A program made the translations under genes and the position numbers. Source: Sphingomonas sanxanigenens (GTDB lineage: Bacteria; Pseudomonadota; Alphaproteobacteria; Sphingomonadales; Sphingomonadaceae). Taken from it: DNA of 64,000 bases. The stretch lies in contig JBBCJR010000021.1 of NCBI GenBank assembly GCA_037190805.1, forward strand, positions 32,735 through 96,734. The letters are read 5' to 3'. The notes beneath the pieces are model-generated. The model did no database searches. It had not been told where the DNA came from and saw only the letters and a program-made list of their open reading frames with translations. Within the stretch, counting starts at the first letter, position 1; each line of letters starts with the position of its first letter. Shown one piece after another: positions 4,656 through 19,255 of this stretch.

Positions 4656-5468
4656 ATGAACCCCACCGAACACCGCATGCTCGACATGCTCAAAAAGGGC
4701 CGTGATCACTATGGCGTGGTTGCCGTGAAAGCCGAATTCGAGGCAGAAGGCACACGCCCCGACGAGTTTTTGCGCCTCCTGGAAATTACGCGCCGCGCCG
4801 ACCTCAAGGTCGCGCTCAAGATCGGTGGCTGCGAGGCGATTTCCGACCTTCACGCCGCGCGCCTCTATGGCATTGACTACATCATCGCGCCGATGGTCGA
4901 GACGCCCTATGCGCTGACCAAGTTCGCCGACGCGCGCGACAAGGTGTTCGGTGCGGGGAAAAGCGACACCGACTTCCTGTTCAATCTCGAAACCGAAATG
5001 ACCCTTCAGGCTCTGGACGCGATGGTGCCGATCGCGCGCGAGCGGGTTGACGGGATCGTGTTCGGCCGCGTCGATTTCACCCTGTCGCGGGGCATGCCGC
5101 GCGGTGCGATCAACGACCGTTCGATCACCGATGCGGTGCTGATCACCGCCGAGGCGTGCCGTGCCAACGATCTGGAACTGGTGGTAGGCGGATCGGTCGC
5201 GGTCGAGGCGCTGGATGCGCTGCGTGAAATCCGCAGCGTTCGGCTCGACCGGTTCGAAACGCGCAAGGTCGTGTTCGACGGCGCAGCAGCGGAGGCGGCG
5301 GATTTCGAGGATGCGGTGGCCAATGCAGTGGCGTTCGAGCTTGCCTGGCTGGAGAACAAGGCGGACTATTACGGCGTTATCGCGGCGGAGGATCGTGCCC
5401 GCATCACGATGATGCGCGATCGCGCCGCCAAGGCCGCTCAGCGCCGACTGACCAGTGTGGCCGCCTGA
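4656..5468 (+). CDS. HpcH/HpaI aldolase / citrate-lyase-beta-like family protein
   Basis: 270 aa, with SD GAGGAGGG upstream. IIAPMVETPYAL and FGRVDF resemble motifs of the HpcH/HpaI-CitE fold. The family call is from memory only. Confidence 0.55.
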   Translation: MNPTEHRMLDMLKKGRDHYGVVAVKAEFEAEGTRPDEFLRLLEITRRADLKVALKIGGCEAISDLHAARLYGIDYIIAPMVETPYALTKFADARDKVFGAGKSDTDFLFNLETEMTLQALDAMVPIARERVDGIVFGRVDFTLSRGMPRGAINDRSITDAVLITAEACRANDLELVVGGSVAVEALDALREIRSVRLDRFETRKVVFDGAAAEAADFEDAVANAVAFELAWLENKADYYGVIAAEDRARITMMRDRAAKAAQRRLTSVAA

Positions 5469-5471
5469 GGC

Positions 5472-6302
5472 ATGGCGTTGCTGGCAGAGGTCGCCGCGCT
5501 GATGCGCGAGGTGGCGGAGGTCGCGGTGCTGCCGCGTTTCCGCAGTCTCGCCGCGCATGAGATTGTCGAGAAGAGTCCCGGTGAGCTGGTCACCAGCGCC
5601 GATCGCGAGGCCGAATTGCGCCTGCGTGACGGGCTTGACCGGCTCGGCGTCGGTGCGCGCGTGGTGGGGGAGGAGGCCGCCGCCGAAACTCCTGCGCTGC
5701 TCGACGGGATTGGTGATGGTCTTGTCTGGCTGGTCGATCCGCTCGATGGGACGGCCAATTTCGCTGCCGGGCGGGAACCGTTCGGGATGATGGTTGCGCT
5801 GGTCGATGATGGTGTGCCGATCGCCGGCTGGATGTTCGATCCGATCAGTGGCCGGATGTGCCAAGCGGCGCGTGGGCTGGGCGCGACGATCGACGGGGTT
5901 GCGGTGCGGACCCATATCCCGACCGGAACACAGCCGGTGGCGTCGCTCGCCACGCAGTTCATGTCGGCGGACCGCCGCGCGCGCGTTCATGCACGGGCGG
6001 AGCGCGACTTTACCCTGATGCCGATCCCGCGCTGCGCGGCGGAGAGCTATCCGCGGCTGGCGCTGGGGCAAAATCACGTTGCACTATTCCAGCGCATTCT
6101 GCCGTGGGATCACGCCGCCGGCGTGCTGTTCATCGAGGAGGCCGGCGGACGTGCGGCGCATTGGGACGGCCAGCCCTATCGCGTCGGCAGCGCCTCGTCG
6201 GGATTGCTGGTCGCTGCCAGCGAGGACCTCTGGGGCCACGCCGCGAAGAGTTTTCTCGACGCGGTTATCCCCGCACAGGCGCTGCAAGTTCTCGCCGCAT
6301 GA
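5472..6302 (+). CDS. Inositol-monophosphatase-family phosphatase
   Basis: 276 aa. IMPase signature WLVDPLDGTANF and a later WDHAAG. Starts 3 nt after the upstream stop. Confidence 0.8.
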   Translation: MALLAEVAALMREVAEVAVLPRFRSLAAHEIVEKSPGELVTSADREAELRLRDGLDRLGVGARVVGEEAAAETPALLDGIGDGLVWLVDPLDGTANFAAGREPFGMMVALVDDGVPIAGWMFDPISGRMCQAARGLGATIDGVAVRTHIPTGTQPVASLATQFMSADRRARVHARAERDFTLMPIPRCAAESYPRLALGQNHVALFQRILPWDHAAGVLFIEEAGGRAAHWDGQPYRVGSASSGLLVAASEDLWGHAAKSFLDAVIPAQALQVLAA

Positions 6303-8158
6303 TCCGGATCGTATTGTTTTGCGGCGTCTCGGCCGCGCTGACGCTGGTCTCCATGCCTGTTGCCGCCCAGTTCGTATCTCCCGTCGCGAGACAGGCGCAG
6401 GGGCAAGTGGCCGAGGGCCTGCGCGTCGCGCCCAATATCGCCGTCCCGCAGGTCGAGCCGTCCGCCGGTTATCAGCCGGCGGTGATCGAGACACCGGCAA
6501 TGCCCGCCGATCAGTCCGAGATGCCTGAAGCCGTAGCCCCAGCGCCGCGGACCGCCGAGACTCCCGGCAGCGAGTTCGAACGCTATGTGTCGAGCATCGC
6601 GGGCAAGCCGCTACGCCGCTTCGGCGCCGAGCTGCTCGTGCCCGAGGCGCGGGATTTCACCGCGCCCAGCACGGTTGCGGTGCCGGTCGATTATCGTATC
6701 AACCCTGGTGATCAGCTCCAGCTCGGCCTGACCGGGTCGGTGCAGTCGTCCGCGCGCCTGACCGTGGACAGCGAGGGGCGGGTGTTCGTGCCCCGCGTCG
6801 GAGCGATTACCGTTGGCGGTGTGCGCTATGGCGATGTGCGCGCGGTGATCGCCGATCAGGTATCGCGTCAGTATCGCGGGTTCGATCTCGAAGTGACCGT
6901 CGCCCGGCTGCGCGGCATCACCGTTTATGTGACGGGCTTCGCGCAGCGCCCAGGATCCTACACGGTCAGCAGTCTGTCGACCCTGGTCAATGCCGTGCTT
7001 GCGGCGGGCGGGCCGGCGGACGGCGGCAGCTTCCGTTCGATCCAGTTGCGCCGCGACGGGAATCTGGTCTCCGATTTCGATCTTTACGATCTGCTGCTCA
7101 ACGGGAACAAGACCGGCGATGCTGCGCTCCAGAACGGTGACGTCATCCATATCGCGCCGGCCGGCGCCCAGGTCGCGGTTGTCGGCAGCGTCAACCGCGA
7201 GGCGATCTTCGAGGTCGGTCCCGGCGAGACCCTGGCCGATGCCGTGCGCTATTCGGGCGGGCTCAGCACCGTCGCTGACGACAGCCGCTTGCTGGTCTTC
7301 GACTCGCTCGGGCGCACCAATGGCTGGCAGCAGCTGACATCAGCCGAGGCGGGGGTGCGGGTCGCCAGGCGCGGTGACATCGTCCGTGTTCTCTCGGACA
7401 TCGGCATCGCGCGTCCGGTCGGCACGCAGCCCGTGCTGGTCACGATCAGCGGCGAAGTGGCCAAGCCGGGACGCTATTACGTCACGCCTGGAACGCGCCT
7501 CGCGGACGTGGTGGCGCAGGCGGGTGGATTGACCGCGCAAGCCTTTCCTTATGCCGGCGTGATCACGCGCGAGAGCGTCAAGGCGCAGCAGCGCGAGAGT
7601 TTCGACCGCGCGATCAATGACATGGAGCTCCTGCTGACCACGCAGCCACTGGTTTCGGCCAATCGCGCGCAACTGTCCACGCCGGCCAACGCTCAGCTGA
7701 TCAACGCGGCGGTCGAACAGATGCGCAAGCGCGAGCCGACCGGCCGGCTGGTGTTCGACATGCCGGTGACGGCATCGGTGCTGCCAGGCGACCTCATCCT
7801 CGAGAACAATGATAGCGTTCATGTGCCGACGCGGCCGGTGACGATCGGCGTATTCGGCGCGGTCGCCAGCCCCGCGTCGTTCGCCTATCGCGAGGGTCAG
7901 AAGATCGGCGACGCGATCCGCACCGCCGGCGGCGTCCAGAAGCTGGGCGACAAGAGCGGGATCTTCGTGATCCGCGCCAACGGCACGGTGTTGTCCAACG
8001 GACGACGTGTGATTGGTGCGCCGGCGTTGCCGGGTGACCTGATCTATGTGCCGGTCGATGCCAGCCGCGGCGAATTCTGGGCACGGCTGCGCGATATCAC
8101 CAGCAGCATCTTCACGCCCGTGATCGGCGCCGCGACGATCAGGGCGGCGGTGCAATGA
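6299..8158 (+). CDS. Outer-membrane polysaccharide export protein (OPX; Poly_export plus SLBB-like repeats)
   Basis: In-frame ATG 6299 (ATGA overlap with the upstream stop) gives signal peptide MIRIVLFCGVSAALTLVSMPVAAQ. PVDYRINPGDQLQL is followed by repeated GDxIxVP-type segments (NGDVIHIAP, RGDIVRV, PGDLIYVP). I discarded the first 147 codons of the track ORF, which overlap the IMPase gene out of frame. Confidence 0.75.
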   Translation: MIRIVLFCGVSAALTLVSMPVAAQFVSPVARQAQGQVAEGLRVAPNIAVPQVEPSAGYQPAVIETPAMPADQSEMPEAVAPAPRTAETPGSEFERYVSSIAGKPLRRFGAELLVPEARDFTAPSTVAVPVDYRINPGDQLQLGLTGSVQSSARLTVDSEGRVFVPRVGAITVGGVRYGDVRAVIADQVSRQYRGFDLEVTVARLRGITVYVTGFAQRPGSYTVSSLSTLVNAVLAAGGPADGGSFRSIQLRRDGNLVSDFDLYDLLLNGNKTGDAALQNGDVIHIAPAGAQVAVVGSVNREAIFEVGPGETLADAVRYSGGLSTVADDSRLLVFDSLGRTNGWQQLTSAEAGVRVARRGDIVRVLSDIGIARPVGTQPVLVTISGEVAKPGRYYVTPGTRLADVVAQAGGLTAQAFPYAGVITRESVKAQQRESFDRAINDMELLLTTQPLVSANRAQLSTPANAQLINAAVEQMRKREPTGRLVFDMPVTASVLPGDLILENNDSVHVPTRPVTIGVFGAVASPASFAYREGQKIGDAIRTAGGVQKLGDKSGIFVIRANGTVLSNGRRVIGAPALPGDLIYVPVDASRGEFWARLRDITSSIFTPVIGAATIRAAVQ

Positions 8159-9273
8159 CCGTGATCCTCGAACGGGCGCGCATGGCGATCGCCGACGCGC
8201 GATGGCGGCGACGCGCCTATGTTGTGCTGATGCTGGTACTCGGGGTGCTATCCGTCGTGCCGCAGCCTTACATCGCCCGCGCCAAGATCGTGCCGCAGGA
8301 CAGCAACAGCATTGGCCTGGGGTCGATGATGAACGCGCTGGGTGGCCAGTTGCAGGGTTTCGCCGCGCTGCTCGGTGGGGCCAAGCAGCCGGTCGACCTT
8401 TACCTCGCGGTGGCGCGGGGCAGCGAGGTGACCACCGCGGTAATCCGTTCGCTCAAGCTCGATGGCCCCGACCAATATGGCTCTGACCGTGCCGCGCGGC
8501 TCAAGCTGCTAAAGAAGGTCGATATTCACTCGCTGACCGGCGGCGTTCTCGAAGTCGAGGCACGCACCCATGACCCGGTCGAGGCCGAGGCGCTGACCCG
8601 TGCCTATGTCGACGCGATCACCGCCCGGCTGAACACGCTTGGCCGCGACCGCGTCATGCGTAAGCGCCAGATCGTCATGGCTCGTTTTCGCGAGGCCGGG
8701 GAGCGTGTTGCCAAGGCTGAGACCGCGCTCACCGCCTTCCGCCGCGACAATAACCTCGCCGAGCCTGAGGCGCAGCTTGGCTCGGCGCTGTCGCTGCGCG
8801 CGGGTTTACAGGCGCAGCTTCAGGCTAAACTGGTGGAGCTGCAGACGCTCCAGCGCTTTCAGGGCGCCCAGAACCCGCAGCTTCAGGCTGTTCAGTCCGA
8901 GGTCGCGGCGCTGCGTCAGCAGATCGCGCGCAGTGCCGCGCCAAGCATCGATGCCGCCGGACCCAATGTCGCCGGCCTGTCGGAAACGTCGGGCCGTTAC
9001 CTCGATCTCTATCGTGACTATCGCTTTGCACAGGCGCTGTACGAGGTTTACTCGCGCTCGTCAGAGGAAGTGGCGGTCGAGGCGCTGGCAGCGGAGACCG
9101 CGTCGGACGCGCAGGTGATCGAAGCGGCGCACGTCGATCCCGACCGCAAGTATAATATTTCCGCCGTCGCATTGCTCGCTCTGGTGATTCTGCTTGCGGC
9201 CTTCACCGAGGTCTATGCGCCGGCAACCGGCATGCGGCTGCCGCTGATCGATGGCCGGAACCCGCGACCGTGA
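8155..9273 (+). CDS. Polysaccharide co-polymerase, KpsE/CtrB-like inner-membrane export protein (no kinase domain)
   Basis: 372 aa. N-terminal TM AYVVLMLVLGVLSVV, long Q/A/L-rich coiled coil (LQAQLQAKLVELQTLQ), C-terminal TM ISAVALLALVILLAAF. ATGA overlap with the OPX gene. Confidence 0.6.
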   Translation: MTVILERARMAIADARWRRRAYVVLMLVLGVLSVVPQPYIARAKIVPQDSNSIGLGSMMNALGGQLQGFAALLGGAKQPVDLYLAVARGSEVTTAVIRSLKLDGPDQYGSDRAARLKLLKKVDIHSLTGGVLEVEARTHDPVEAEALTRAYVDAITARLNTLGRDRVMRKRQIVMARFREAGERVAKAETALTAFRRDNNLAEPEAQLGSALSLRAGLQAQLQAKLVELQTLQRFQGAQNPQLQAVQSEVAALRQQIARSAAPSIDAAGPNVAGLSETSGRYLDLYRDYRFAQALYEVYSRSSEEVAVEALAAETASDAQVIEAAHVDPDRKYNISAVALLALVILLAAFTEVYAPATGMRLPLIDGRNPRP

Positions 9274-10211
9274 GCGACCCCGAACTGTCGGTGGTCATTC
9301 CGTGCTTCAACGAGGAAGAGAATGTCGCCGCGATCTGCCGCGCGGTGTGTGAGCAGGCCGAGCGCCATGCGGCGAGCTTTGAGATCATTCTCATAGACAA
9401 CCATTCGACGGACGGCACCCGTGCCATCATCCGCCAGCTGTGCAGCGAGGATCGCCGCATCCGGGCGATCTTCAACACCCGCAATTATGGCCAGATGCGC
9501 TCGCCGACCCATGGCATCTATCAGGCGCGGGGCAGTGCGGTGATCGGCATGTGCGCCGATTTCCAGGACCCTCCCGAGATGATCGGCGCGTTCGTGCGAC
9601 TGTGGCGTGGGGGGGCGAAGATCGTGCTCGGCCAGCGCCGCAGCGAGCGAGCGGGCCTGCTGCTCGGCGCGGTCCGCCGTGTGGGCTATGCGGTGCTCCG
9701 GGGGATCGCCGACCACCCGGTGATTCCCAACGTCACTGGTTTCGGGCTGTTCGACCGGCAGGTCGTCGACGCGCTGTCGCGCTGGAACGAGCCCGAGCCC
9801 TTCTTTCGCGGCATGCTGGTCGAAAGCGGCTTTTCGATCGCGCTGGTCCCCTTCGACCGGCCGCCGCGCGCGGCAGGGGAGACCAAGAACGGAATCGCGT
9901 CGCTGTTCGGCTTTGCCCTGTCGGGACTGTCAGGATCGGCCAAGGCTCTGTTGCGGTTGCCGATCACGCTCGCGCTCGTCTTCGGACCACTCACGCTTGC
10001 CCTGCTATTCGCCGGCTTGGGCGCGCTGCTGCTCGACGGCCCCGCGGCTCTGTTGCTGCTGCTCTCACTGGCGACCGGCATGTTCGCGACCCTGCTGCTG
10101 TTCGTCGGGTTGATCGGTGATCAGGTGCGTCTGATCGCCGAGCGGACTCGTGGCGTGCCGCTGGTGATCGAAGAAACGCGGCTCAACTTCCCGGCCGAGC
10201 CCGCCCCGTGA
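9270..10211 (+). CDS. Family-2 glycosyltransferase of the polyprenyl-phosphate glycosyltransferase type (GtrB/ArnC/DPM1-like)
   Basis: 313 aa. LSVVIPCFNEEENV, ILIDNHSTDGT and CADFQDPPE form the GT-A region. Two C-terminal TM helices follow (ITLALVFGPLTLALLFAGLGALLL, LLLLLSLATGMFATLLLFVGLIG). GTG start with GTGA overlap. Confidence 0.8.
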   Translation: MSDPELSVVIPCFNEEENVAAICRAVCEQAERHAASFEIILIDNHSTDGTRAIIRQLCSEDRRIRAIFNTRNYGQMRSPTHGIYQARGSAVIGMCADFQDPPEMIGAFVRLWRGGAKIVLGQRRSERAGLLLGAVRRVGYAVLRGIADHPVIPNVTGFGLFDRQVVDALSRWNEPEPFFRGMLVESGFSIALVPFDRPPRAAGETKNGIASLFGFALSGLSGSAKALLRLPITLALVFGPLTLALLFAGLGALLLDGPAALLLLLSLATGMFATLLLFVGLIGDQVRLIAERTRGVPLVIEETRLNFPAEPAP

Positions 10212-11500
10212 AGCGCCGCGCGGTCCCGGTGGTCGAGACGCTGCTGGCGCTGGCGGTGATCGCCTGCGCCTTGTCGATGGCGATGCAGTTCGCCGCGCGC
10301 GGCTATCTGCCGCAGCCGTTCGTCTTCGATACCAACGATACCTTCATGGACTGGTTCAACACCGCCTTCTGGGCGAACCGACCGGGTGCCTATGATGTCT
10401 GGCGCAGCATCTACCCACCGCTGTCGTTCGCGTTCCTCGACCTGTTCAGCCTGCCCGGTTGCTATCTGAGTTCGCCATTCCATGCGCGCGATTGCGACTG
10501 GCTGGGGAGGGGTGTGATTGCCTTCTTCTACCTGCTCGACGTCGCCCTGGCGGGTGTTGCCTTCCATCGCACCGATCCCCGCACCGCGATCCAGCGCACC
10601 ATCGCCTTCGGGCTCGGCCTGCCGCTGCTGTTCACGCTGGAGCGCGGCAATTTGATTCTCGTCTGCCTTGCGGCATTCATTGTCGCCTATGGGCCGATCA
10701 CCCGCTCGCCGTGGTGGCGCGCGCTGGCGACGGCGATCACGATCAATTTCAAGCCCTATCTGGTTATCCCCACCTTCGCCCTGGCGCTGCGCCGCGAGTG
10801 GCGGCCGCTGGAACTGGCGGCAATCGCCACCGTCGCCCTCTATCTCGTCACCCTTGCTATCGTCGGCGCCGGAACGCCCGGCGAGTTGGCCAGCAATACC
10901 GCCAACTGGGTCGTGTTCCAGAGCGGGCAGGTGTGGGGCGAGATCCATTATTCGACCAGCTATGCCCCCCTGCTGCTGGTGCGGGCGTCGCAGATTCCGG
11001 TGCTGGAGTTCGTGTCGTCGCGACTGATCGAGGGGATCGAGGGCGCGGTGCCGATCATCATCCGTTCGACCCAGCTTGTCGCGCTTGCCTGCATCGCTGC
11101 GGCCTGGTTGCAGCCGCGGGCGCTGTCCCACGCCAGGCTGGGGGCGCTGCTGCTGGGCGCCTATATCGTCGGGCAATCGCCGGGCGGCTATACGCAGACC
11201 TTCCTGCTGTTCCTGGTTTTCCTCGAACCCTGGAAGGGGATCGGGCCGGGACTGGCGTTGATCTCGGCCTATCTGCTCAGCTTGGTCGTCGAATGGCCGC
11301 TGTCGACCGTGCTGGAAGTAAGCGGCAACAGCTGGCTTAGCGGACAGCCGGTGGTTGCCGGCTTCGGCCTCGCCGTGGGACATTTCGTGCGACCGGGACT
11401 GATCGCGCTGATCGTGTGGGGACTGGCGCTGGACGGTCTGATCAAGGTCGGCCGCGCGCATCGCGAGCGAGCGCCGGTCGCGGGACTGGCGCTGTCATGA
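10208..11500 (+). CDS. Polytopic integral membrane protein, candidate GT-C-like (DUF2029/GT87-like) transferase or polymerase
   Basis: 430 aa with roughly 10-12 hydrophobic segments and no soluble domain. The first loop FVFDTNDTFMDWF is acidic, as in GT-C enzymes. GTGA overlap upstream and ATGA overlap downstream. Family assignment is uncertain. Confidence 0.5.
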   Translation: MKRRAVPVVETLLALAVIACALSMAMQFAARGYLPQPFVFDTNDTFMDWFNTAFWANRPGAYDVWRSIYPPLSFAFLDLFSLPGCYLSSPFHARDCDWLGRGVIAFFYLLDVALAGVAFHRTDPRTAIQRTIAFGLGLPLLFTLERGNLILVCLAAFIVAYGPITRSPWWRALATAITINFKPYLVIPTFALALRREWRPLELAAIATVALYLVTLAIVGAGTPGELASNTANWVVFQSGQVWGEIHYSTSYAPLLLVRASQIPVLEFVSSRLIEGIEGAVPIIIRSTQLVALACIAAAWLQPRALSHARLGALLLGAYIVGQSPGGYTQTFLLFLVFLEPWKGIGPGLALISAYLLSLVVEWPLSTVLEVSGNSWLSGQPVVAGFGLAVGHFVRPGLIALIVWGLALDGLIKVGRAHRERAPVAGLALS

Positions 11501-12507
11501 TCGCCGAACGCGACCTTGCGGATATGGACGCGCGGCTCGCGCCCTTGTGGCCGCAGCTGGAGGGAGCGCGAATATTCTTCACCGGCGGCACCGGCTTCAT
11601 CGGCCGCTGGATGCTGGAGGCGCTCGCGCGTGCACCGAGTGCGGTCCAGGTGACCCTGCTCACGCGCGACCCCGCCGCCTTCGCGGCGCGATCGCCACAT
11701 CTGGCGACGCGTTTCGAGCTATTGTCCGGTGACGTCATGACGGCCGATGTCCCGAACGGCGGCTGGACCCACGTCATCCACGGCGCGACCGATGCCAGCG
11801 CCGCGCTGACCGCCAATGATCCGCGCCGCATGTTCGACACCATCCTCACCGGCACCCGGCGGATGCTCGATCTCGCCTGCGCCAGCAGGGCCCGGTTTCT
11901 GTTCATGAGTTCCGGCGCCGTCTATGGTGTGCAGCCGCCCGAATTGAGCCATGTCGGTGAAGACTGGATGGGCGGCCCCGATCCGCGCGATCCGCGCTCG
12001 GCCTATGCCGAGGGCAAGCGCGCGGTCGAGACGCTGTGCGCGATCTACCATCACCAGTTCGGGCTCGATGCGGTGGGCGCGCGCATCTTCGCGCTGCTCG
12101 GCCCGCTGCTGTCGCTCGATATCCATTTCGCCGCCGGCAATTTCATCCGCGACGCGCTTGCCGGGCGAACGATCCGCGTCGAAGGCTCGGGGGCGCCAGT
12201 CAGGTCGTATCTCTACGCCGCCGATCTGGCGGTCTGGATGTGGACGCTGGCGATCGCCGCGCCGCCCGGCAGCAGCTACAATGTCGGATCGGAGGAGGCG
12301 GTATCGATCGCCGATCTCGCCCGGCGCACGGCACGCGTGCTTGGCGCACCGGGCGCTGAAATCCTCGGCGCGGCCGATCCGACCTGGAACCCCGGCCGCT
12401 ACGTGCCCTCGACCGCGAACATCCGCCGCGACCTCGGCGTTGCCGCCACCGTCGACCTCGACGAGGCGATCCGCCGCACCGCGGCCTCCCATGGATGGGA
12501 ATCATGA
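11497..12507 (+). CDS. NAD(P)-dependent extended SDR (sugar epimerase/dehydratase/ketoreductase family)
   Basis: ATG 11497 (ATGA overlap). Rossmann motif FFTGGTGFIGRW and catalytic YAEGK (YxxxK). Confidence 0.8.
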   Translation: MIAERDLADMDARLAPLWPQLEGARIFFTGGTGFIGRWMLEALARAPSAVQVTLLTRDPAAFAARSPHLATRFELLSGDVMTADVPNGGWTHVIHGATDASAALTANDPRRMFDTILTGTRRMLDLACASRARFLFMSSGAVYGVQPPELSHVGEDWMGGPDPRDPRSAYAEGKRAVETLCAIYHHQFGLDAVGARIFALLGPLLSLDIHFAAGNFIRDALAGRTIRVEGSGAPVRSYLYAADLAVWMWTLAIAAPPGSSYNVGSEEAVSIADLARRTARVLGAPGAEILGAADPTWNPGRYVPSTANIRRDLGVAATVDLDEAIRRTAASHGWES

Positions 12508-14327
12508 CGACCACGATCAAGCTTTCCGACTGGGTGGCCGACTGGCTGACTGCCCATGGCATCGAGCAGGTGTTCATGCTCACCGGTGGCGGGGCCATGC
12601 ATCTCAACCACTCGATCGGCACCAATCCGGGCCTGAAGACGCTTTTCGCGCATCACGAGCAAGCACTGGCGATGGCGGCGGAGGCCTATGCGCGGCTGAC
12701 CAACCGGCCGGCGGTGGTCAACGTCACCTCTGGGCCCGGCGGTACCAACGCCATCACCGGCGTTTATGGCGCCTATGTCGATTCGATCCCGATGCTGGTG
12801 ATCTCGGGCCAGGTGAAGCGCGAGACGACGGTGCGATCGACCGGGCTGGCGCTGCGCCAGCTGGGGGATCAGGAACTGGATATCGAGGAGTTGGTCCGTC
12901 CGATAACCAAATATGCGGTGATGGTCACCGATCCGCTGACCATCCGCTACCATCTCGAAAAGGCGCTGCATCTTGCGACGACCGGCCGGCCGGGGCCGGT
13001 GTGGATCGACATCCCGCTGGACGTGCAGGCGACGCGGATCGATCCGGCGGACCTGACGGGCTTCGATCCCGCCGAGCTCGACGAACCATGGCGGCGTGAC
13101 GATCTGGCGGAGGTGGCGGCCGAAATCCTGGATCGGCTCGCCAGGGCCGAACGCCCGGTGGTGTTCGCTGGCGGCGGGGTGCGGCTGAGCGGCGCCTATG
13201 CAGGGTTTCTTGCGCTGATCGAGCGGCTGGGGGTGCCGGTCGTGACCGGGTGGAACGCGCACGATGTGCTGTGGAACGATCACCCGCTCTATGCCGGCCG
13301 GCCGGGGACGGTGGGAGACCGCGGCGGCAATATGGTGACGCAGAGCGCCGACCTGCTGCTGGTGCTTGGCAGCCGGCTCAATATCCGGCAGGTCAGCTAT
13401 AACTGGAGCAGCTTCGCACGGGCCGCCTACAAGATCTGGGTCGATATCGACCCGCTGGAACTGGAGAAGCCGACCGTCCGCCCGGACATGCCGGTGGTCG
13501 CCGATCTTGCCGAGTTGATCCCCGCGCTGCTCGATTCCCCCTATGCCGGGCCGACCGAGGCGCATGGTGCATGGCTCGATTGGGCACGTCAGCGCGTTGC
13601 GAACTTTCCGGTCGTCCAACCCGACTATCACGATCATGGCCCGACCAACCATCCGTACGTGGCGATGGAGGCATTGTTCGAAGCCCTCACCGACACCGAC
13701 GTGGTGGTGACGGGTAACGGCAGTGCCTGCGTGGTCAGCTTTCAGGCCGCCAGGCTTCAGCGCGGCCAGCGGCTGTGGACCAATTCGGGCTGTGCGACGA
13801 TGGGCTATGATCTGCCCGCCGCCATCGGCGTGTCAGCCGCGATCGGGCCTGACCGCCGCGTGATCTGCATCGCCGGCGACGGCAGCATCATGATGAACCT
13901 GCAAGAGATGCAGACGATCGCCGGCTACGGCCTGCCGGTGAAGGTTTTTCTCATCAACAATGCTGGTTATGTTTCGATCTTCCAAACCCATCGCAACTTC
14001 TTCAATGGCGTCGAAGTCGGTGGCGGGCCCAAGAGCAATGTCACCTTCCCGAGTTTCGAACGCATCGCCGACGCCTTCGGCTTCGCCTATGCGCGCGCCG
14101 AGAGGCATGATGATCTGGCCCAGGCGATCGCCGTGACCCTCGACGCGCCTGGCCCGGCCTTGTGCGAGATCATCGTCGACGAGAACGTCGTCTTCGCGCC
14201 CAAGCTCGGGGCGAAGCCACATCCCGACGGCCGCATCACGTCGCCGCCGCTCGAGGATCTGTCGCCGTTCCTGCCGCGTGAGGTGCTGGCCGCGAACATG
14301 GCCATTCCCCTGGTGGAGGAGGCATGA
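12504..14327 (+). CDS. Thiamine-diphosphate-dependent three-domain enzyme (acetolactate-synthase-like; YerE-like candidate)
   Basis: 607 aa from ATG 12504 (ATGA overlap); ATG 12495 is also possible. Canonical ThDP motif GDGSIMMNLQEMQTIAGYGLPVKVFLINNAGY. No ilvN/ilvC-like neighbours; the gene is embedded in sugar genes. Confidence 0.8.
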   Translation: MTTTIKLSDWVADWLTAHGIEQVFMLTGGGAMHLNHSIGTNPGLKTLFAHHEQALAMAAEAYARLTNRPAVVNVTSGPGGTNAITGVYGAYVDSIPMLVISGQVKRETTVRSTGLALRQLGDQELDIEELVRPITKYAVMVTDPLTIRYHLEKALHLATTGRPGPVWIDIPLDVQATRIDPADLTGFDPAELDEPWRRDDLAEVAAEILDRLARAERPVVFAGGGVRLSGAYAGFLALIERLGVPVVTGWNAHDVLWNDHPLYAGRPGTVGDRGGNMVTQSADLLLVLGSRLNIRQVSYNWSSFARAAYKIWVDIDPLELEKPTVRPDMPVVADLAELIPALLDSPYAGPTEAHGAWLDWARQRVANFPVVQPDYHDHGPTNHPYVAMEALFEALTDTDVVVTGNGSACVVSFQAARLQRGQRLWTNSGCATMGYDLPAAIGVSAAIGPDRRVICIAGDGSIMMNLQEMQTIAGYGLPVKVFLINNAGYVSIFQTHRNFFNGVEVGGGPKSNVTFPSFERIADAFGFAYARAERHDDLAQAIAVTLDAPGPALCEIIVDENVVFAPKLGAKPHPDGRITSPPLEDLSPFLPREVLAANMAIPLVEEA

Positions 14328-14731
14328 GCGCCGCTGTGCCACGGGATCGCCACACCCCAATCCGGTTCGTTGCCGCTGGCGCGCTCAACACGATCGTCGG
14401 CTTGTCAGTCTATCCGCTGCTGCTGTGGAGCGTGCCCGTCCTTCACAACCGCTATATGGTGGCGCTGCTGATCGCCCAGGCGGTTTGCCTGTGCTTTGCC
14501 TTCATGACCTACAAGCTCGGCGTGTTCCGCACGCGCGGCAATCTGGTTCGCGAGTTCGGCGCCTTTTCAAGCTATTACCTGTTCAACTACGCCGCCAACT
14601 GGGTGGTGCTGCCCTTGCTCGTCGAGATTGCCGGCCTGTCGCCGATCATTGCGCAATTCGGCTTCACCCTCATCCTGATCGTCGGGAGCTGGCTATGGCA
14701 CAGCCGCGTCACGTTTCGGAAGACGACATGA
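14324..14731 (+). CDS. GtrA-family small membrane protein
   Basis: 135 aa with four hydrophobic segments. N-terminus RFVAAGALNTIVGLSVYPLL is typical of GtrA-like proteins. ATGA overlaps on both sides. Confidence 0.75.
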   Translation: MSAAVPRDRHTPIRFVAAGALNTIVGLSVYPLLLWSVPVLHNRYMVALLIAQAVCLCFAFMTYKLGVFRTRGNLVREFGAFSSYYLFNYAANWVVLPLLVEIAGLSPIIAQFGFTLILIVGSWLWHSRVTFRKTT

Positions 14732-15693
14732 TCCGCCCCGCCTTGCGCGATCGGGCCTGTCCGCTGTGCGGGGAACGCGATGCGGTCCCTGCGATGTCGA
14801 GTTCGCTCTGCGCGGAGGAATGCACGCTCGACGAACTGCGGCCTTTCTGGTTCGGCATCGATCGGGCCAAGTATTTCTTCACCTATCACCGCTGCGTGGC
14901 ATGTGGCCTGCTCTACAACCCGGTGTTCTTCGACGACGCGCAGCTGGGCGACTTGTATTCGGCGATGCCGCCCAACATGGATCTGGTAGCGAGCGACGCG
15001 ATCGCTGCCACCCAGCGCGGCTACTTCGACGCGGCGGCCGGGCGTGGCGCGCTCGATGGCGGCTATCTCGAGATCGGGCCGGACATCGGCTATATGGTCG
15101 GCGAAGCGGCGAGGCGAGGGCGTTTCGACCACTTCTGGCTGTTCGAGCCCAATCGTGCGGTACATGACGTGCTGCACGCTGCCAGCGCCGGTCGGCCGAC
15201 CACGATCCTGCCGGACATGACCGACCTTTCGGCTGTTCCCGACCGCAGTATCGGCCTGGCTGTGATGGTGCATGTGCTCGACCATCTGCTCGATCCGGTA
15301 ACCATGATCGAGGCGATCCGCGCCAAGCTGCGTCCCGGCGGCACCCTCCTGATCGTGACGCATGACGAGCGTTCGATGCTTAGCCGTGTGCTCGGAGCGC
15401 ACTGGCCGCCCTTCTGCCTCCAGCATCCCGAACTCTACAATCCGCGGACCATTCGGCAGCTGCTGGCGCGTGCTGGACTGCCGGGCGCCGAGGTCAGCCG
15501 CTCGCGCAATTATTTCCCGATCGATTTCCTCGCACGTCAGGCCGCATTGGCGCTCGGCGTGCGATTGAACCGGGTGCCGTTGCCCAGGCGCGCGATCGGG
15601 CTGCGCCTGGGCAATATCCTGACCATGGCGACGAACGCCGTTCAGGCGGCGGCGATAACGCGCCCTGCAGCGGAACTGGAAAGCGCGGCGTAA
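14728..15693 (+). CDS. Class I SAM-dependent methyltransferase with N-terminal Cys4 zinc-ribbon-like motif
   Basis: 321 aa from ATG 14728. Cys pairs CPLCGE ... CVACGLLYNP, then SAM motif I YLEIGPDIGYM and LRPGGTLLIV. Confidence 0.75.
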   Translation: MIRPALRDRACPLCGERDAVPAMSSSLCAEECTLDELRPFWFGIDRAKYFFTYHRCVACGLLYNPVFFDDAQLGDLYSAMPPNMDLVASDAIAATQRGYFDAAAGRGALDGGYLEIGPDIGYMVGEAARRGRFDHFWLFEPNRAVHDVLHAASAGRPTTILPDMTDLSAVPDRSIGLAVMVHVLDHLLDPVTMIEAIRAKLRPGGTLLIVTHDERSMLSRVLGAHWPPFCLQHPELYNPRTIRQLLARAGLPGAEVSRSRNYFPIDFLARQAALALGVRLNRVPLPRRAIGLRLGNILTMATNAVQAAAITRPAAELESAA

Positions 15694-16730
15694 CGGGTAA
15701 TCTGGTCGAGTGTGACCGCGCGAGCGTCCGCGCCGTCGCCCACCGACTTGTGCCAGGCGACGATCCAGTCGATCGCTTCGCCCAGGGTCAGTGCCGGTCG
15801 CCAGCCGAGCGCGGCCCGCGCGCGGGAGCTGTCGAGCCGCAACAAGCCCGCTTCATGCGGACGCGGCGTGCTGTCGAGCACTGGCGCCGCCGCGCCATCC
15901 GCCCAGGCGGCGCGCATCCGCTCCACGATCCAGCGCACTGGCTGCGCGTCATCGTCCGAGGGGCCGAAATTCCACGCATCGGCAAAGCGCCGTTCGCCCA
16001 CCAGCAATCGCTCGGCGATCCGAATATATCCACCCAGCGCTTCCAGCACATGCTGCCACGGGCGCACCGAGTCAGGCGAGCGGATCAGCGGCGGGGCATC
16101 GGCCTCGAACGCGCGGACGAGATCGGGGATCAGGCGATCGCCCGCCCAGTCGCCGCCGCCGATGACATTGCCGGCGCGTACCGATGCGACGCTGGGACCG
16201 TCGACCTGGAAATAGGAATTGCGATAGGCGGCCACGACCAGTTCGGCGCAGCCCTTGCTGCTGCTGTAGGGGTCGTGGCCGCCCATCGGATCGCTTTCGC
16301 GATAAGGCCATTCCCACTCGCGATTGGCGTAGCATTTGTCGCTGGTCACGCAGATCACGCCGGCGACGCCGCCCGCTCGACGTACGGCCTCGAGAAGATG
16401 AACCGTTCCCATCACGTTCGCGGCATAGGTCTCGACCGGCTCGACATAGGACAGCCGCACCAACGGCTGGGCGGCAAGATGGAATATGATCTCGGGTCGC
16501 GCGCGATCCACCACCGCGCGCATCGCGGCGAGGTCGCGGATGTCGCCCTCGACATGATCGATCAGCGCGTCGATCCGGGCGCTTTCAAACAGGCTTGGAG
16601 TGGTTGGTGGCGGCAGTGCGAAGCCGGTTACCCTCGCGCCCATTGCCTGGAGCCACAGGGTCAGCCAACTGCCCTTAAAACCCGTGTGTCCGGTGATGAG
16701 GACGCGGCGGCCATCCCAGGGCGCGCTCAC
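15642..16730 (-). CDS. rfbG: CDP-glucose 4,6-dehydratase
   Basis: GTG 16730 (GTGA overlap with the rfbF stop) gives VSAPWDGRRVLITGHTGFKGSWL. Catalytic PYSSSKGCAE. I discarded the upstream 50 codons of the track ORF. Confidence 0.85.
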   Translation of the reverse strand: MSAPWDGRRVLITGHTGFKGSWLTLWLQAMGARVTGFALPPPTTPSLFESARIDALIDHVEGDIRDLAAMRAVVDRARPEIIFHLAAQPLVRLSYVEPVETYAANVMGTVHLLEAVRRAGGVAGVICVTSDKCYANREWEWPYRESDPMGGHDPYSSSKGCAELVVAAYRNSYFQVDGPSVASVRAGNVIGGGDWAGDRLIPDLVRAFEADAPPLIRSPDSVRPWQHVLEALGGYIRIAERLLVGERRFADAWNFGPSDDDAQPVRWIVERMRAAWADGAAAPVLDSTPRPHEAGLLRLDSSRARAALGWRPALTLGEAIDWIVAWHKSVGDGADARAVTLDQITRYAALSSSAAGRVIAAA

Positions 16731-17500
16731 CAGCGCTTCCACGGGGCCTTGCCGGATTGCCACAGGCCGTCGAGATGAACCTTGTCGCGCAGCGTATCCA
16801 TCGGATGCCAGAATCCGTCGTGGCGATAACCCATCAACTCGCCCCCGGTCGCGAGCTGTTCGAGCGGTCCGGCTTCCCATACCGTATCCGGCCCGTCGAC
16901 CAGGTCGAGCACGCTGGGATGGGCGACGAAGAAGCCGCCGTTGATCTGCCCGCCATCGCCAGCCGGCTTTTCCCGGAAGGCAGCGATGCGCGTGCCGTCA
17001 TATTCAAGCGAGCCGAAACGGCCGGGCGGGGTGACCGATGTGATGGTGGCGCGCTGCTTGTGGGCTTTGTGAAAGCGGACCAGATCGCCGATGTCGATAT
17101 CGGCCACACCGTCGCCATAGGTGAAGCAGAACGGCTCGTCGGGATCGAGATAGTCGCGGATCGCCGCCAGCCGGCCGCCGGTCATCGTGTTCGCGCCGGT
17201 TTCGACCAGTGTGATCCGCCACGGCTCGCTGCCCGCGCGATGCACCTCCAGCCCGTTGCCGCCGCGCAGGTCGATCGTCACGTCCGCCGTGTGCAGGAAG
17301 TAGTTCGCGAAATATTCCTTGATCAGATAGCCCTTGTATCCAAGGCAGATCACGAAGTCGTTGAAGCCGGCGGACGAATAGATTTTCATGATGTGCCACA
17401 GGATCGGCATACCGCCGATCTCGACCATTGGCTTCGGCCGCACCGCGGTCTCCTCGCCGAGCCGGCTGCCCAGGCCGCCGGCCAAAATAACGGTCTGCAT
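16727..17500 (-). CDS. rfbF: Glucose-1-phosphate cytidylyltransferase
   Basis: ATG 17500 preceded by SD GGAGGAA. MQTVILAGGLGSRLGEET...KPMVEIGGMPILWHIMK is near-canonical RfbF. The upstream part of the 505-aa track ORF is antisense to the GT-C gene. Confidence 0.9.
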   Translation of the reverse strand: MQTVILAGGLGSRLGEETAVRPKPMVEIGGMPILWHIMKIYSSAGFNDFVICLGYKGYLIKEYFANYFLHTADVTIDLRGGNGLEVHRAGSEPWRITLVETGANTMTGGRLAAIRDYLDPDEPFCFTYGDGVADIDIGDLVRFHKAHKQRATITSVTPPGRFGSLEYDGTRIAAFREKPAGDGGQINGGFFVAHPSVLDLVDGPDTVWEAGPLEQLATGGELMGYRHDGFWHPMDTLRDKVHLDGLWQSGKAPWKRW

Positions 17501-17563
17501 GGTTCCTCCGCAAAAATGCTCACTGCGATGACGGAAACAGGCCGGCGTCTCCGTAATGGGGAT

Positions 17564-19255
17564 ATGAGCATCGATGTCGAACGGCCGCGGCTGTGGCTTT
17601 GCCTGGTCCTGCTGGCCGCGACGGCGCTGCGGATGTGGCACATCGGCTTCGGCCTGCCGTCGCTCAACGATCCGGACGAGCCGCTGTTCGTGATGAAGGC
17701 GCTCGATCTGCTGCGCGAGGGGGCGATCAACCCCGGATGGTTCGGACATCCCGCGACGACACTGTTTTACGCGCTGGCGGTGTTGTTCGCGTTGATCGCG
17801 GCGCTTGGCATGGCGCTGGGCGCGTGGGCATCGCCGGCGGCGTTCGCAGCGGCGGTATTCGCCGATCCGGGTATGATCGTGTTGCCGGGGCGGGTGATGA
17901 TCGCCTTGGTGGGGATCGCTTCGGTCGCCTTGGTCTATTGTATCGGTCGCCGAGTGGCGGGTGCGCGCGCCGGGCTGGTCGCTGCGGCGCTGCTCGCGGT
18001 CAGCCCGCTGCATGTCGAGCTGTCGCAGACCATCCGTACCGACGTTCCCGCGACCGCGCTGATGCTGCTCAGCAGCTTCTATGCGGTGCGTGTCGCGCAG
18101 GGTGGCCGCCTGCGCGATATCCTGTTGGCAGGGATGGCGGCGGGGGTGGCATGTGCCACCAAGTGGCCGGCGGCGCTGGTGCTTGCCTCCGTCGAAGCTG
18201 CGGTTCTGATGCGGGTCGTCGACGGACGGCAGCGTATCGCCCATCTAATTGTCGCCCCGATCGTTGCCGTGATCACCTTGCTGCTCGTCTCGCCTTTCCT
18301 GATCCTCGACTATGCGACGGTCGTGCACGACCTCGGCGGCGAGGCGCGCGGGTTTCATCTGGGCGCGACGGGGGCGGGATGGGCGAGCAATTTCGTGTGG
18401 TATCTCGTCAACCCGATCAGCACCGCCCTGGGTGTGGCCGGACTGGTCTTGGCGGCGGCGGGTTTGACCGTCTCGTTCAGGCGGGATCGGACCATGGCGC
18501 TGGCCCTGTTCGCTGCGCCCGTGATCTTCCTGATCGCGATCAGCGGCCAGGCTTTGATCTGGGAGCGCTGGGCCGTGCCGCTGCTGCCCTATGCGGCGCT
18601 CGCAGCGGCCCTGGGCCTGGACTGGGTGGTCAAGCGGTTCGCCGGATCGCGACAGAATCTCATGGGAACGATCATCGCTTTGCTGGTCTGCGCCCCGATC
18701 CTCGTTTCCTGTGTCATGCGCACGCAGGAGCGCAGCATCGATACGCGTCAGGCGGCGAGCGTCTGGCTGCGCGACCATGTCGACCCCGGCGCTTCCGTGC
18801 TGATCGAGCATGCAGGCTTCGATCTGCTCGAACGGCCGGGCCGGGTGCTGTTTCCGCTCGGCGCGCAAGGGTGCATCGACGTGCGCGCCGCATTGTCGGG
18901 GCGGCCGACCTTCGAAGCGACCGGTGAGGCGCGTGGGGAGCGGCCGATCATCGACATCGGCAATGTCGATCCGGGCCGTCTGGCGACCTGCCGCGCCGAC
19001 TATGCGATCCTGTCCCACTACAGCCGCTATGCGGCGGAACAGGCCCGGTTTCCGCTTCCGACATGCCTCTATCGTGCTTTGCTGCGCAATGGACAGATCG
19101 TGGCGAGCTTCGCGCCGGAGACGGGGCGTCGCGGCGGTCCTGACGTGCAGGTCGTCCGTCTCGCTCCTCAGGACTTCGACGCGCCGGCGAGCTGTATCGT
19201 CGAAGGGCGAAACGCGACACGCGCCCACGAGTTGAAGGCAAGATCCCAGGATTAG
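17564..19255 (+). CDS. GT-C fold glycosyltransferase, family 39/83-like (ArnT/PMT-like)
   Basis: ATG 17564 (ATG 17528 possible). 563 aa, many TM segments, then a soluble C-terminal domain of about 190 aa. The first loop LNDPDEPLF carries the acidic motif seen in ArnT/PMT enzymes. Divergent from rfbF across 63 bp. Confidence 0.75.
   Translation: MSIDVERPRLWLCLVLLAATALRMWHIGFGLPSLNDPDEPLFVMKALDLLREGAINPGWFGHPATTLFYALAVLFALIAALGMALGAWASPAAFAAAVFADPGMIVLPGRVMIALVGIASVALVYCIGRRVAGARAGLVAAALLAVSPLHVELSQTIRTDVPATALMLLSSFYAVRVAQGGRLRDILLAGMAAGVACATKWPAALVLASVEAAVLMRVVDGRQRIAHLIVAPIVAVITLLLVSPFLILDYATVVHDLGGEARGFHLGATGAGWASNFVWYLVNPISTALGVAGLVLAAAGLTVSFRRDRTMALALFAAPVIFLIAISGQALIWERWAVPLLPYAALAAALGLDWVVKRFAGSRQNLMGTIIALLVCAPILVSCVMRTQERSIDTRQAASVWLRDHVDPGASVLIEHAGFDLLERPGRVLFPLGAQGCIDVRAALSGRPTFEATGEARGERPIIDIGNVDPGRLATCRADYAILSHYSRYAAEQARFPLPTCLYRALLRNGQIVASFAPETGRRGGPDVQVVRLAPQDFDAPASCIVEGRNATRAHELKARSQD

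Follow-up and report, generated by a model that had tools for sequence, protein, structure and literature searches.

A sphingomonad gene cluster predicted to make a C4-branched, methylated 6-deoxyhexose for the cell surface

Introduction

Which sugar is built where a thiamine diphosphate (ThDP) enzyme is encoded among nucleotide-sugar genes, and where is that sugar taken? This question is raised by a 64,000-nucleotide stretch of Sphingomonas sanxanigenens DNA (assembly GCA_037190805.1, contig JBBCJR010000021.1, positions 32,735 to 96,734), referred to below as the window and numbered from its first letter. An original prediction, centred on positions 11497-17500, had proposed a cytidine diphosphate (CDP)-linked 4-keto-6-deoxyglucose derivative that would be C-branched, reduced and/or methylated. 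The CDP route, a YerE-like carboligase and a reductase of the short-chain dehydrogenase/reductase (SDR) type are retained in our analysis, whereas the two-carbon branch and the C-methyl group are disfavoured. We propose, with a probability of about 0.6, that the locus makes a CDP-linked 6-deoxyhexose bearing a methyl group and, at C4, a long carbon branch, and that this sugar is moved to the cell surface. The end product expected from it is a 6-deoxy-4-C-(hydroxyalkyl)-O-methylhexose of the Rhodopseudomonas palustris type, probably with a different side chain. Such acyl-branched sugars are rare and chemically hard to detect, and they shape bacterial surfaces.

Identity of the ThDP enzyme

The ThDP enzyme (12504-14327, forward strand, 607 residues) is a YerE-like candidate carboligase of the JanthE/RhopE type. 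It had been described as acetolactate-synthase-like, and its three TPP_enzyme domains, its canonical GDG...NN ThDP-binding motif and an HHEQA motif holding the catalytic glutamate agree with that description. A generic architecture of this kind would also suit an ordinary acetohydroxyacid synthase (AHAS) of branched-chain amino acid synthesis that lies in a glycan locus by chance, an explanation to which the AHAS models heading the NCBIfam matches and the frequent database label "acetolactate synthase" of the orthologues lend some weight. Analysis of the profile scores pointed elsewhere. The enzyme reaches 323.8 bits on TIGR00118 against a cut-off of 538.35 and remains likewise below the cut-off of all other AHAS models, while a true AHAS operon, ilvI-ilvH-ilvC, is found elsewhere in the genome (contig C25), with an ilvI product scoring 1005 bits against the AHAS 3 large-subunit cut-off of 974. 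First, the identity of the window enzyme to AHAS is only 32%. Secondly, its gene neighbours are those of the SDR and of GtrA, with no adjoining small-subunit gene. Thirdly, comparison with solved structures gave 409 bits over the full length for JanthE (PDB ID: 8rph) versus 229-235 bits for the Escherichia coli and plant AHAS. A C-terminal tail characteristic of the family, FAPKL...SPPLEDLSPFLPRE, which includes the position of JanthE K567, is present in the window enzyme and absent from AHAS. The structure 5ahk, labelled acetolactate synthase II large subunit, scored 217 bits, lower than the true AHAS; we take this entry to be PpYerE, in which case the enzymes called YerE-like may not form a single clade.

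To place the enzyme among its relatives, 1.84 billion representative sequences were searched, giving at least 150 clusters (50% identity) at 390 bits or more, and a scan of species genomes yielded 80 loci from many phyla. Co-occurrence counts refer to 82 family loci, which were searched with the proteins of the cluster and with E1 from Sphingomonas fuzhouensis. A phylogeny of 87 sequences, with E. coli IlvB and the IlvI of this genome as outgroup, was obtained by a quick search with support from the Shimodaira-Hasegawa-like approximate likelihood-ratio test (SH-aLRT) only; in this tree, the family was separated from AHAS by a long branch (100 SH-aLRT). The window enzyme does not group with IlvB/IlvI, as it would have had to for the original prediction to be refuted on this point. 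It falls within a nine-member clade (100 SH-aLRT) together with enzymes from other sphingomonads, Bradyrhizobium canariense, a Sulfurirhabdus metagenome-assembled genome (MAG) and R. palustris; JanthE occupies a long basal branch of the same tree, and its exact position is uncertain. Judged by profiles and phylogeny, the window enzyme is not an acetohydroxyacid synthase, an explanation that we consider scarcely credible, and its membership of the ketone-accepting YerE-like carboligases is supported.

Several members of the family are fused to other domains. N-terminal cupin-like extensions of about 250 residues were found in P0145, P0146, P0194, P0200, P0235, P0263 and P0270, and C-terminal fusions to a haloacid dehalogenase (HAD) phosphatase and to a methyltransferase in P0156 and P0256, respectively. 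A Rosetta-stone fusion between an aldolase and the ThDP enzyme was considered and rejected, the N-terminal extensions being cupin-like and not aldolases.

Sugar supply and 3-deoxygenation

The glucose-1-phosphate cytidylyltransferase RfbF (16727-17500, reverse strand; TIGR02623, 419 bits, cut-off 300) and the CDP-glucose 4,6-dehydratase RfbG (15642-16742, reverse strand; TIGR02622, 480 bits, cut-off 278) both exceed their curated cut-offs. Their description as near-canonical was therefore accurate, and the proposed route through CDP-glucose to CDP-4-keto-6-deoxyglucose is upheld. The absence of the E1/E3 genes for 3-deoxygenation, first noted for the span of the original prediction, extends to E1 in the whole genome, whose completeness of 99.6% is the basis of all genome-wide absences reported here: the search for this pyridoxamine 5'-phosphate-dependent dehydrase of the DegT family (PF01041) returned a single, partial match of 34.8 bits, while the positive control from S. 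fuzhouensis (locus L082) scored 341 bits. Since no E1 gene is found, the product would not be yersiniose.

This feature distinguishes the whole clade. RfbF and/or RfbG are co-located with the ThDP gene in 44 of the 82 family loci, and an E1 homologue is also present in 44 of 82 but in none of the eight window-clade loci. A methyltransferase homologue accompanies seven of these eight (no match in L016); a GtrA homologue was listed for seven in a first count, from which L008 was missing, and accompanies all eight when L008 is added. The aldolase occurs in 22 of the 82 family loci, among them all those of the window clade, and the pairing of an SDR gene with the ThDP gene is seen repeatedly in different phyla. 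On gene content, two types can be told apart in the family: a common one for 3,6-dideoxy sugars, and one in which the 3-oxygen is retained and the sugar methylated, the window locus being of the latter. This gives a reading rule for such loci: where a clade lacks the genes for 3-deoxygenation, a methyltransferase takes their place, and the aldolase, phosphatase or dehydroquinate-synthase-like partners probably determine the side chain.

A second type of sphingomonad cluster was observed in S. fuzhouensis (L082:4610-13471). It encodes E1, an E3-type ferredoxin reductase, an aldolase, a ThDP enzyme 56% identical to that of the window, a HAD phosphatase, an SDR, a family 2 glycosyltransferase (GT2), a PMT_2 protein and an outer-membrane polysaccharide export (OPX) protein; its product is presumably a branched sugar of the 3,6-dideoxy kind, and related copies are present in L026, L030, L023 and L025. 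Loci L020-L081 include many from MAGs of Lachnospiraceae, Oscillospiraceae and Hungatella and one from a Bacteroides thetaiotaomicron MAG. In gut and rumen Firmicutes the ThDP family is widespread, usually with RfbF, RfbG and E1 nearby; from this gene content, the surface glycans of commensals may often contain branched 3,6-dideoxy sugars.

Extent of the locus

The genes described in the original prediction all lie where it had placed them, but its span takes in just a portion of a unit of 13 genes that extends from 4656 to 19255. The limits of this unit are set by synteny with Sphingobium yanoikuyae, which carries the identical 13 genes in the identical order between unrelated flanks; because the order is kept while the flanks differ, the arrangement is not due to chance. 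The unit comprises, in order, genes for an HpcH-like aldolase, an inositol-monophosphatase (IMPase)-family phosphatase, OPX, a KpsE-like protein, GT2, a GT87-like protein, the SDR, the ThDP enzyme, GtrA and the methyltransferase, followed by rfbG and rfbF, which are read from the other strand, and by a PMT_2 glycosyltransferase of the GT-C type. Direct reading of the sequence confirmed that the SDR, ThDP, GtrA and methyltransferase genes are joined by ATGA overlaps, which occur at 11497, 12504, 14324 and 14728. The ThDP gene is followed by a GtrA gene in the loci of R. palustris, B. canariense and Sulfurirhabdus as well. The methyltransferase and rfbG frames converge, their 3' ends overlapping by 52 bp (15642-15693), compared with 16 bp in S. 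yanoikuyae.

The locus is accessory and patchy in its distribution. Of 300 genomes sampled from the bacterial family to which the window belongs, 22 were found to hold the ThDP gene; by genus, and with the window's own genome included, the figure is 17 of 112. Orthologues in the carrier genomes are 75-87% identical to the window enzyme. The notion of a core sphingomonad gene, prompted by orthologue identities of 79-87% across genera, was dismissed on the count of 22 in 300.

Donor of the branch

The HpcH/HpaI-like aldolase (4656-5468, forward strand; Pfam HpcH_HpaI, 27.7 bits, cut-off 25) lies outside the span of the original prediction and heads the operon, as it also heads the conserved unit in S. 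yanoikuyae. Its predicted model (mean predicted local distance difference test score, pLDDT, 94) was matched by Foldseek to pyruvate kinase barrels, malyl-CoA lyase, CLYBL and HpaI with TMq values (template-modelling score) of 0.5-0.6. In this model, the fold is that of a pyruvate/phosphoenolpyruvate-binding TIM barrel, an assignment that holds at the superfamily level.

In the published scheme, aldolases produce hydroxylated keto acids, which are transferred by the ThDP enzyme, and ErwE rejects pyruvate (PMC9306805). A precedent is already in print for R. palustris CGA009, in which Steitz et al. described a putative cluster comprising an aldolase, the ThDP enzyme RhopE, an NAD(P)H oxidoreductase, an S-adenosylmethionine (SAM) methyltransferase and deoxy-keto-sugar genes, and tied it to a C6-branched O-antigen sugar (PMC9306805). 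Given this scheme, the behaviour of ErwE and the constant presence of the aldolase in the window-clade loci, a hydroxy-keto acid longer than pyruvate is the probable donor, and the branch probably exceeds two carbons; the two-carbon, pyruvate-derived branch first envisaged becomes less likely.

The alternative is that pyruvate is nevertheless the donor, that the resulting acetyl branch is reduced by the SDR to a hydroxyethyl group, that the 4-keto sugar is methylated at C3, and that the aldolase and phosphatase serve elsewhere. JanthE, described as a YerE-like enzyme, joins ketones to keto-acid donors of three or more carbons, pyruvate among them (PMC12188165), and the phosphatase is not universal in the window clade. 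The aldolase, however, is translationally linked into the operon, and the published precedent with an aldolase partner leads to long branches. The methylation half of this alternative is taken up below with the methyltransferase.

The IMPase-family phosphatase (5472-6302, forward strand; Pfam Inositol_P, 135 bits) falls below the HisN and CysQ cut-offs and is present in L004, L006 and L007. Phosphatases recur with the ThDP family, as a HAD protein adjoining the ThDP gene in L082 and fused to the enzyme in P0156, and the window has an IMPase where R. palustris and Bradyrhizobium have a 3-dehydroquinate-synthase (DHQS)-like protein and a short-chain reductase (adh_short). Together, these observations suggest a phosphorylated intermediate, which would be either deoxygenated to give a CH3 end, as in R. 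palustris, or hydrolysed to give a CH2OH end, as may be the case in the window. The adh_short and DHQS-like genes lie between those of the aldolase and the SDR at L086:7114-8932 in R. palustris and at L008:7010-8906 in B. canariense, and DHQS-like genes recur in 12 family loci. The set of aldolase, DHQS-like protein and adh_short could make a 3,7-dideoxy-heptulosonate from a 7-phosphate resembling 3-deoxy-D-arabino-heptulosonate 7-phosphate, by phosphate elimination and reduction, which would lead to a methyl-terminated tetrahydroxyhexyl side chain. When the adh_short/DHQS-like pair was sought in the window genome, only a presumed aroB was found.

Reduction of the branch

The extended SDR (11497-12507, forward strand; Pfam Epimerase, 122 bits) displays the GxxGxxG motif and, as YAEGK, the YxxxK signature for which it had first been recognized. 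It lacks the TDE motif of dehydratases, and its best relatives in the PDB are UDP-glucuronate decarboxylases (109 bits). As the only reductase on hand for a YerF-like step, it is proposed to reduce the carbonyl of the branch.

The SDR is also central to another explanation, in which the ThDP enzyme acts away from the nucleotide sugar. It would make a free acyloin or keto acid used as a non-sugar substituent, or act as a lyase on the aldolase product, and the SDR would yield a CDP-6-deoxyhexose that is then methylated. An SDR of the extended nucleotide-sugar type could indeed be a 4-ketoreductase, and direct evidence of sugar branching is absent for the clade (PMC12247030). On the other side, genes of the ThDP family are found in many phyla in tight association with RfbF/RfbG and, for other clades, with E1; the overlapping SDR and ThDP genes stay together; and the R. 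palustris sugar is C4-branched (PMC9912281, PMC9306805). We consider a non-sugar role of the ThDP enzyme quite improbable and retain its action on the CDP-linked ketone.

Methylation

The class I SAM methyltransferase (14728-15693, forward strand, 321 residues; Pfam Methyltransf_23, 65 bits) carries a zinc ribbon. The two CxxC pairs read from its sequence correspond to C11, C14, C56 and C59, all four invariant in 17 orthologues. A public form of 332 residues starts at an ATG at 14695, inside the GtrA gene; the start at 14728 is favoured by the ATGA junction and by orthologues of 300-320 residues.

The original prediction had associated this protein with the C-methyltransferases that bear an N-terminal zinc module, and the association holds in part. 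Like TylC3, TcaB9, KijD1 and MtmC, the window protein has an N-terminal four-cysteine zinc module ahead of a class I SAM fold. Its predicted model (pLDDT 81, predicted template-modelling score 0.83) finds MtmC, KijD1 and TcaB9 as the best full-length folds, at a TMq of only 0.54-0.60 (root-mean-square deviation 6-10 Å, identity 13-18%). All three are C3-methyltransferases, whose chemistry requires a 4-keto sugar, which speaks for the pyruvate and C-methylation alternative introduced above. There are also differences: Pfam Methyltransf_13 and Methyltransf_14 gave no match in the window protein even at E values up to 5, sequence and profile searches against the PDB gave no link to solved C-methyltransferases, and with 321 residues instead of about 405-419 the protein is some 90 residues shorter, lacking the C-terminal domain of the TylC3/TcaB9 type.

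The R. palustris locus adds a further argument. The orthologue of the window protein is the only methyltransferase found in that locus (L086), and according to a review the R. palustris sugar arises by 3-O-methylation of a C4-branched sugar whose C3 hydroxyl is retained, and is thus an O-methyl and not a C-methyl sugar (PMC9912281). For these two reasons we favour O-methylation, which is probable; C-methylation is distinctly less likely, and any other outcome is unlikely. Taken as a whole, the combination of a pyruvate donor, a two-carbon branch and C3-methylation is an unlikely account of the locus, and a long branch with an O-methyl group remains our preferred reading.

Transfer, export and host

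The remaining genes point to the fate of the sugar. The GT2 (9270-10211, forward strand; Pfam Glycos_transf_2) resembles polyprenyl-phosphate glycosyltransferases of the GtrB/ArnC/PgfS group, with PgfS (111 bits) and ArnC (66 bits) as best NCBIfam matches, both below cut-off, and its translation shows two C-terminal hydrophobic helices. It is encoded together with a small membrane protein of the GtrA family (14324-14731, forward strand; Pfam GtrA_DPMS_TM, 58.7 bits), a putative flippase, and with two GT-C candidates: a GT87-like polytopic membrane protein (10208-11500, forward strand; Pfam GT87, a marginal 25.8 bits against a cut-off of 25), which has a counterpart after the GT2 gene in B. canariense L008, and a PMT_2/ArnT-like protein (17564-19255, forward strand; Pfam PMT_2, 63.7 bits), which closes the unit and is conserved in S. 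yanoikuyae. The OPX protein (6299-8158, forward strand; Poly_export and four SLBB domains), of the Wza/KpsD type, is conserved in the sphingomonad copies of the locus, and a KpsE/BexC-like candidate inner-membrane partner (8155-9273, forward strand; TIGR01010, 56.9 bits, below cut-off) is conserved in the S. yanoikuyae synteny. From these family assignments, the GT2, GtrA and the two GT-C-like proteins would fit a lipid-linked transfer outside the cytoplasm of the three-component GtrA/GtrB/GT-C kind, and the OPX and KpsE-like pair would fit export. Two Wzy_C-family proteins are encoded elsewhere in the genome (C5:181859-182299 and C7:163410-163817) and might act as the ligase or polymerase that the locus itself does not provide.

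A search for LpxC in the genome gave no match, while control genomes gave the expected result, which fits a sphingomonad free of lipopolysaccharide. Because the host lacks LpxC, the acceptor of the glycan would not be lipid A-core.

Proposed pathway

Based on these assignments, we propose the following route. RfbF and RfbG, whose identities are established, would turn glucose-1-phosphate into CDP-4-keto-6-deoxy-D-glucose. The HpcH-like aldolase would join pyruvate to an aldehyde, giving a hydroxylated 2-keto acid longer than pyruvate, and the phosphatase would probably strip the phosphate from either the aldehyde or the aldolase product. The ThDP enzyme, as suggested by its family and context, would then decarboxylate the keto acid and place the acyl-anion equivalent on the C4 ketone of the CDP-sugar, forming a tertiary alcohol that bears an acyl branch, the carbonyl of which would be reduced by the extended SDR. 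Methylation by the zinc-ribbon methyltransferase would follow, most likely at O-3 by analogy with R. palustris, an oxygen that is retained because the E1/E3 3-deoxygenation step is absent. The GT2 may load the sugar onto polyprenyl phosphate and GtrA may flip it, after which its extracytoplasmic transfer or polymerisation would fall to the two GT-C-like membrane enzymes, and export of the product to the OPX/KpsE-like pair.

Several points weigh against this scheme. For the ThDP step, JanthE shares only 38.6% identity with the window enzyme, and the physiological substrates of JanthE are not known (PMC12188165); kinship with the Yersinia pseudotuberculosis enzyme, YpYerE, is known only through JanthE, which the literature calls YerE-like (PMC12188165, PMC12247030); heterologous RhopE had not yet accepted ketones at the time of a review, and no member of the clade appears to have been shown so far to act on CDP-keto sugars (PMC12247030). 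For the side chain, the aldolase combines a marginal Pfam score (27.7 against 25) with a fold match at the superfamily level only, and the phosphatase is missing from the related sphingomonad loci L016 and L017, which weakens the idea of a phosphorylated intermediate. The nearest folds of the methyltransferase model, being sugar C3-methyltransferases, would point to C-methylation. Finally, L086 was matched to the CGA009 cluster by gene content, the strain name of the record being unconfirmed.

A more daring extension can be drawn from the same genes, which we put forward tentatively and at rather long odds. Lipid-A-less sphingomonads might carry a polymer of an undescribed C4-branched 6-deoxy-O-methylhexose, whose long side chain would end in CH2OH and not in CH3. 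The polymer would be built from polyprenyl-phosphate-linked monomers by extracytoplasmic GT-C enzymes and would leave the cell through OPX/KpsE-like export, with no ABC transporter gene in the locus. The CH2OH end is proposed because the aldolase product is taken to be phosphorylated and then dephosphorylated by the IMPase-type phosphatase, while the R. palustris type would use deoxygenation by the DHQS-like protein and the short-chain reductase.

The prediction can be checked in cultured carriers such as Sphingobium yanoikuyae, which are hosts without lipopolysaccharide. ThDP enzymes are also of interest for synthesising chiral tertiary alcohols, for which a new and well-conserved member of this clade may be useful.

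Comparison with known systems

Among the top matches of a literature search, no co-mention of sphingomonads with named branched sugars was found, and the comparison was made with systems described in other bacteria. The classical one is YerE/YerF of Y. pseudotuberculosis, which resembles the window locus in its RfbF/RfbG-type start, in the ThDP-dependent branching at C4 of a CDP-4-keto-deoxyhexose and in the reduction of the branch carbonyl (PMC9306805, PMC12247030). It differs in that YerE uses pyruvate as donor and a 3,6-dideoxy acceptor provided by E1/E3, whereas the window has no E1 and its aldolase suggests a longer donor.

Among solved structures, the best relative is JanthE from Janthinobacterium sp. 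HH01 (PDB ID: 8rph, 8rpi and 8rpj), with which the window enzyme has the C-terminal tail in common and which accepts ketones (PMC12188165); the canonical GDG of the window enzyme is replaced by CDG in JanthE.

Closer in logic are ErwE/ErwI of erwiniose and MMAR_2332/MMAR_2331 of caryophyllose, in which a hydroxylated keto acid made by an aldolase is passed to a YerE-like ThDP enzyme and the product is reduced (PMC9306805). MMAR_2331 belongs to the aldolase/citrate lyase family, as does the window aldolase, while ErwI is BphI-like and of another aldolase family, and the acceptor in both pathways is described as a 3,6-dideoxy sugar; these two systems were compared by description only.

The nearest counterpart is the R. 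palustris locus L086, in which eight genes were matched to the window: the ThDP enzyme (P0282 in R. palustris) is 68% identical, RfbF 63%, RfbG 57%, the aldolase and the SDR 55% each, the methyltransferase 46%, GtrA 44% and the GT2 36%. There too, the SDR gene overlaps the start of the ThDP gene, and E1 is absent from both loci. The R. palustris locus has the adh_short and DHQS-like pair where the window has an IMPase-family phosphatase, and the window adds OPX, the KpsE-like protein and two GT-C-like genes. Unlike the O-antigen of R. palustris, the glycan of a host without LpxC would not be a lipid-A-anchored O-antigen. The locus thus joins an established class, that of YerE-like branched-sugar loci, with the R. 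palustris cluster as a close relative from which its side-chain module and its host set it apart.

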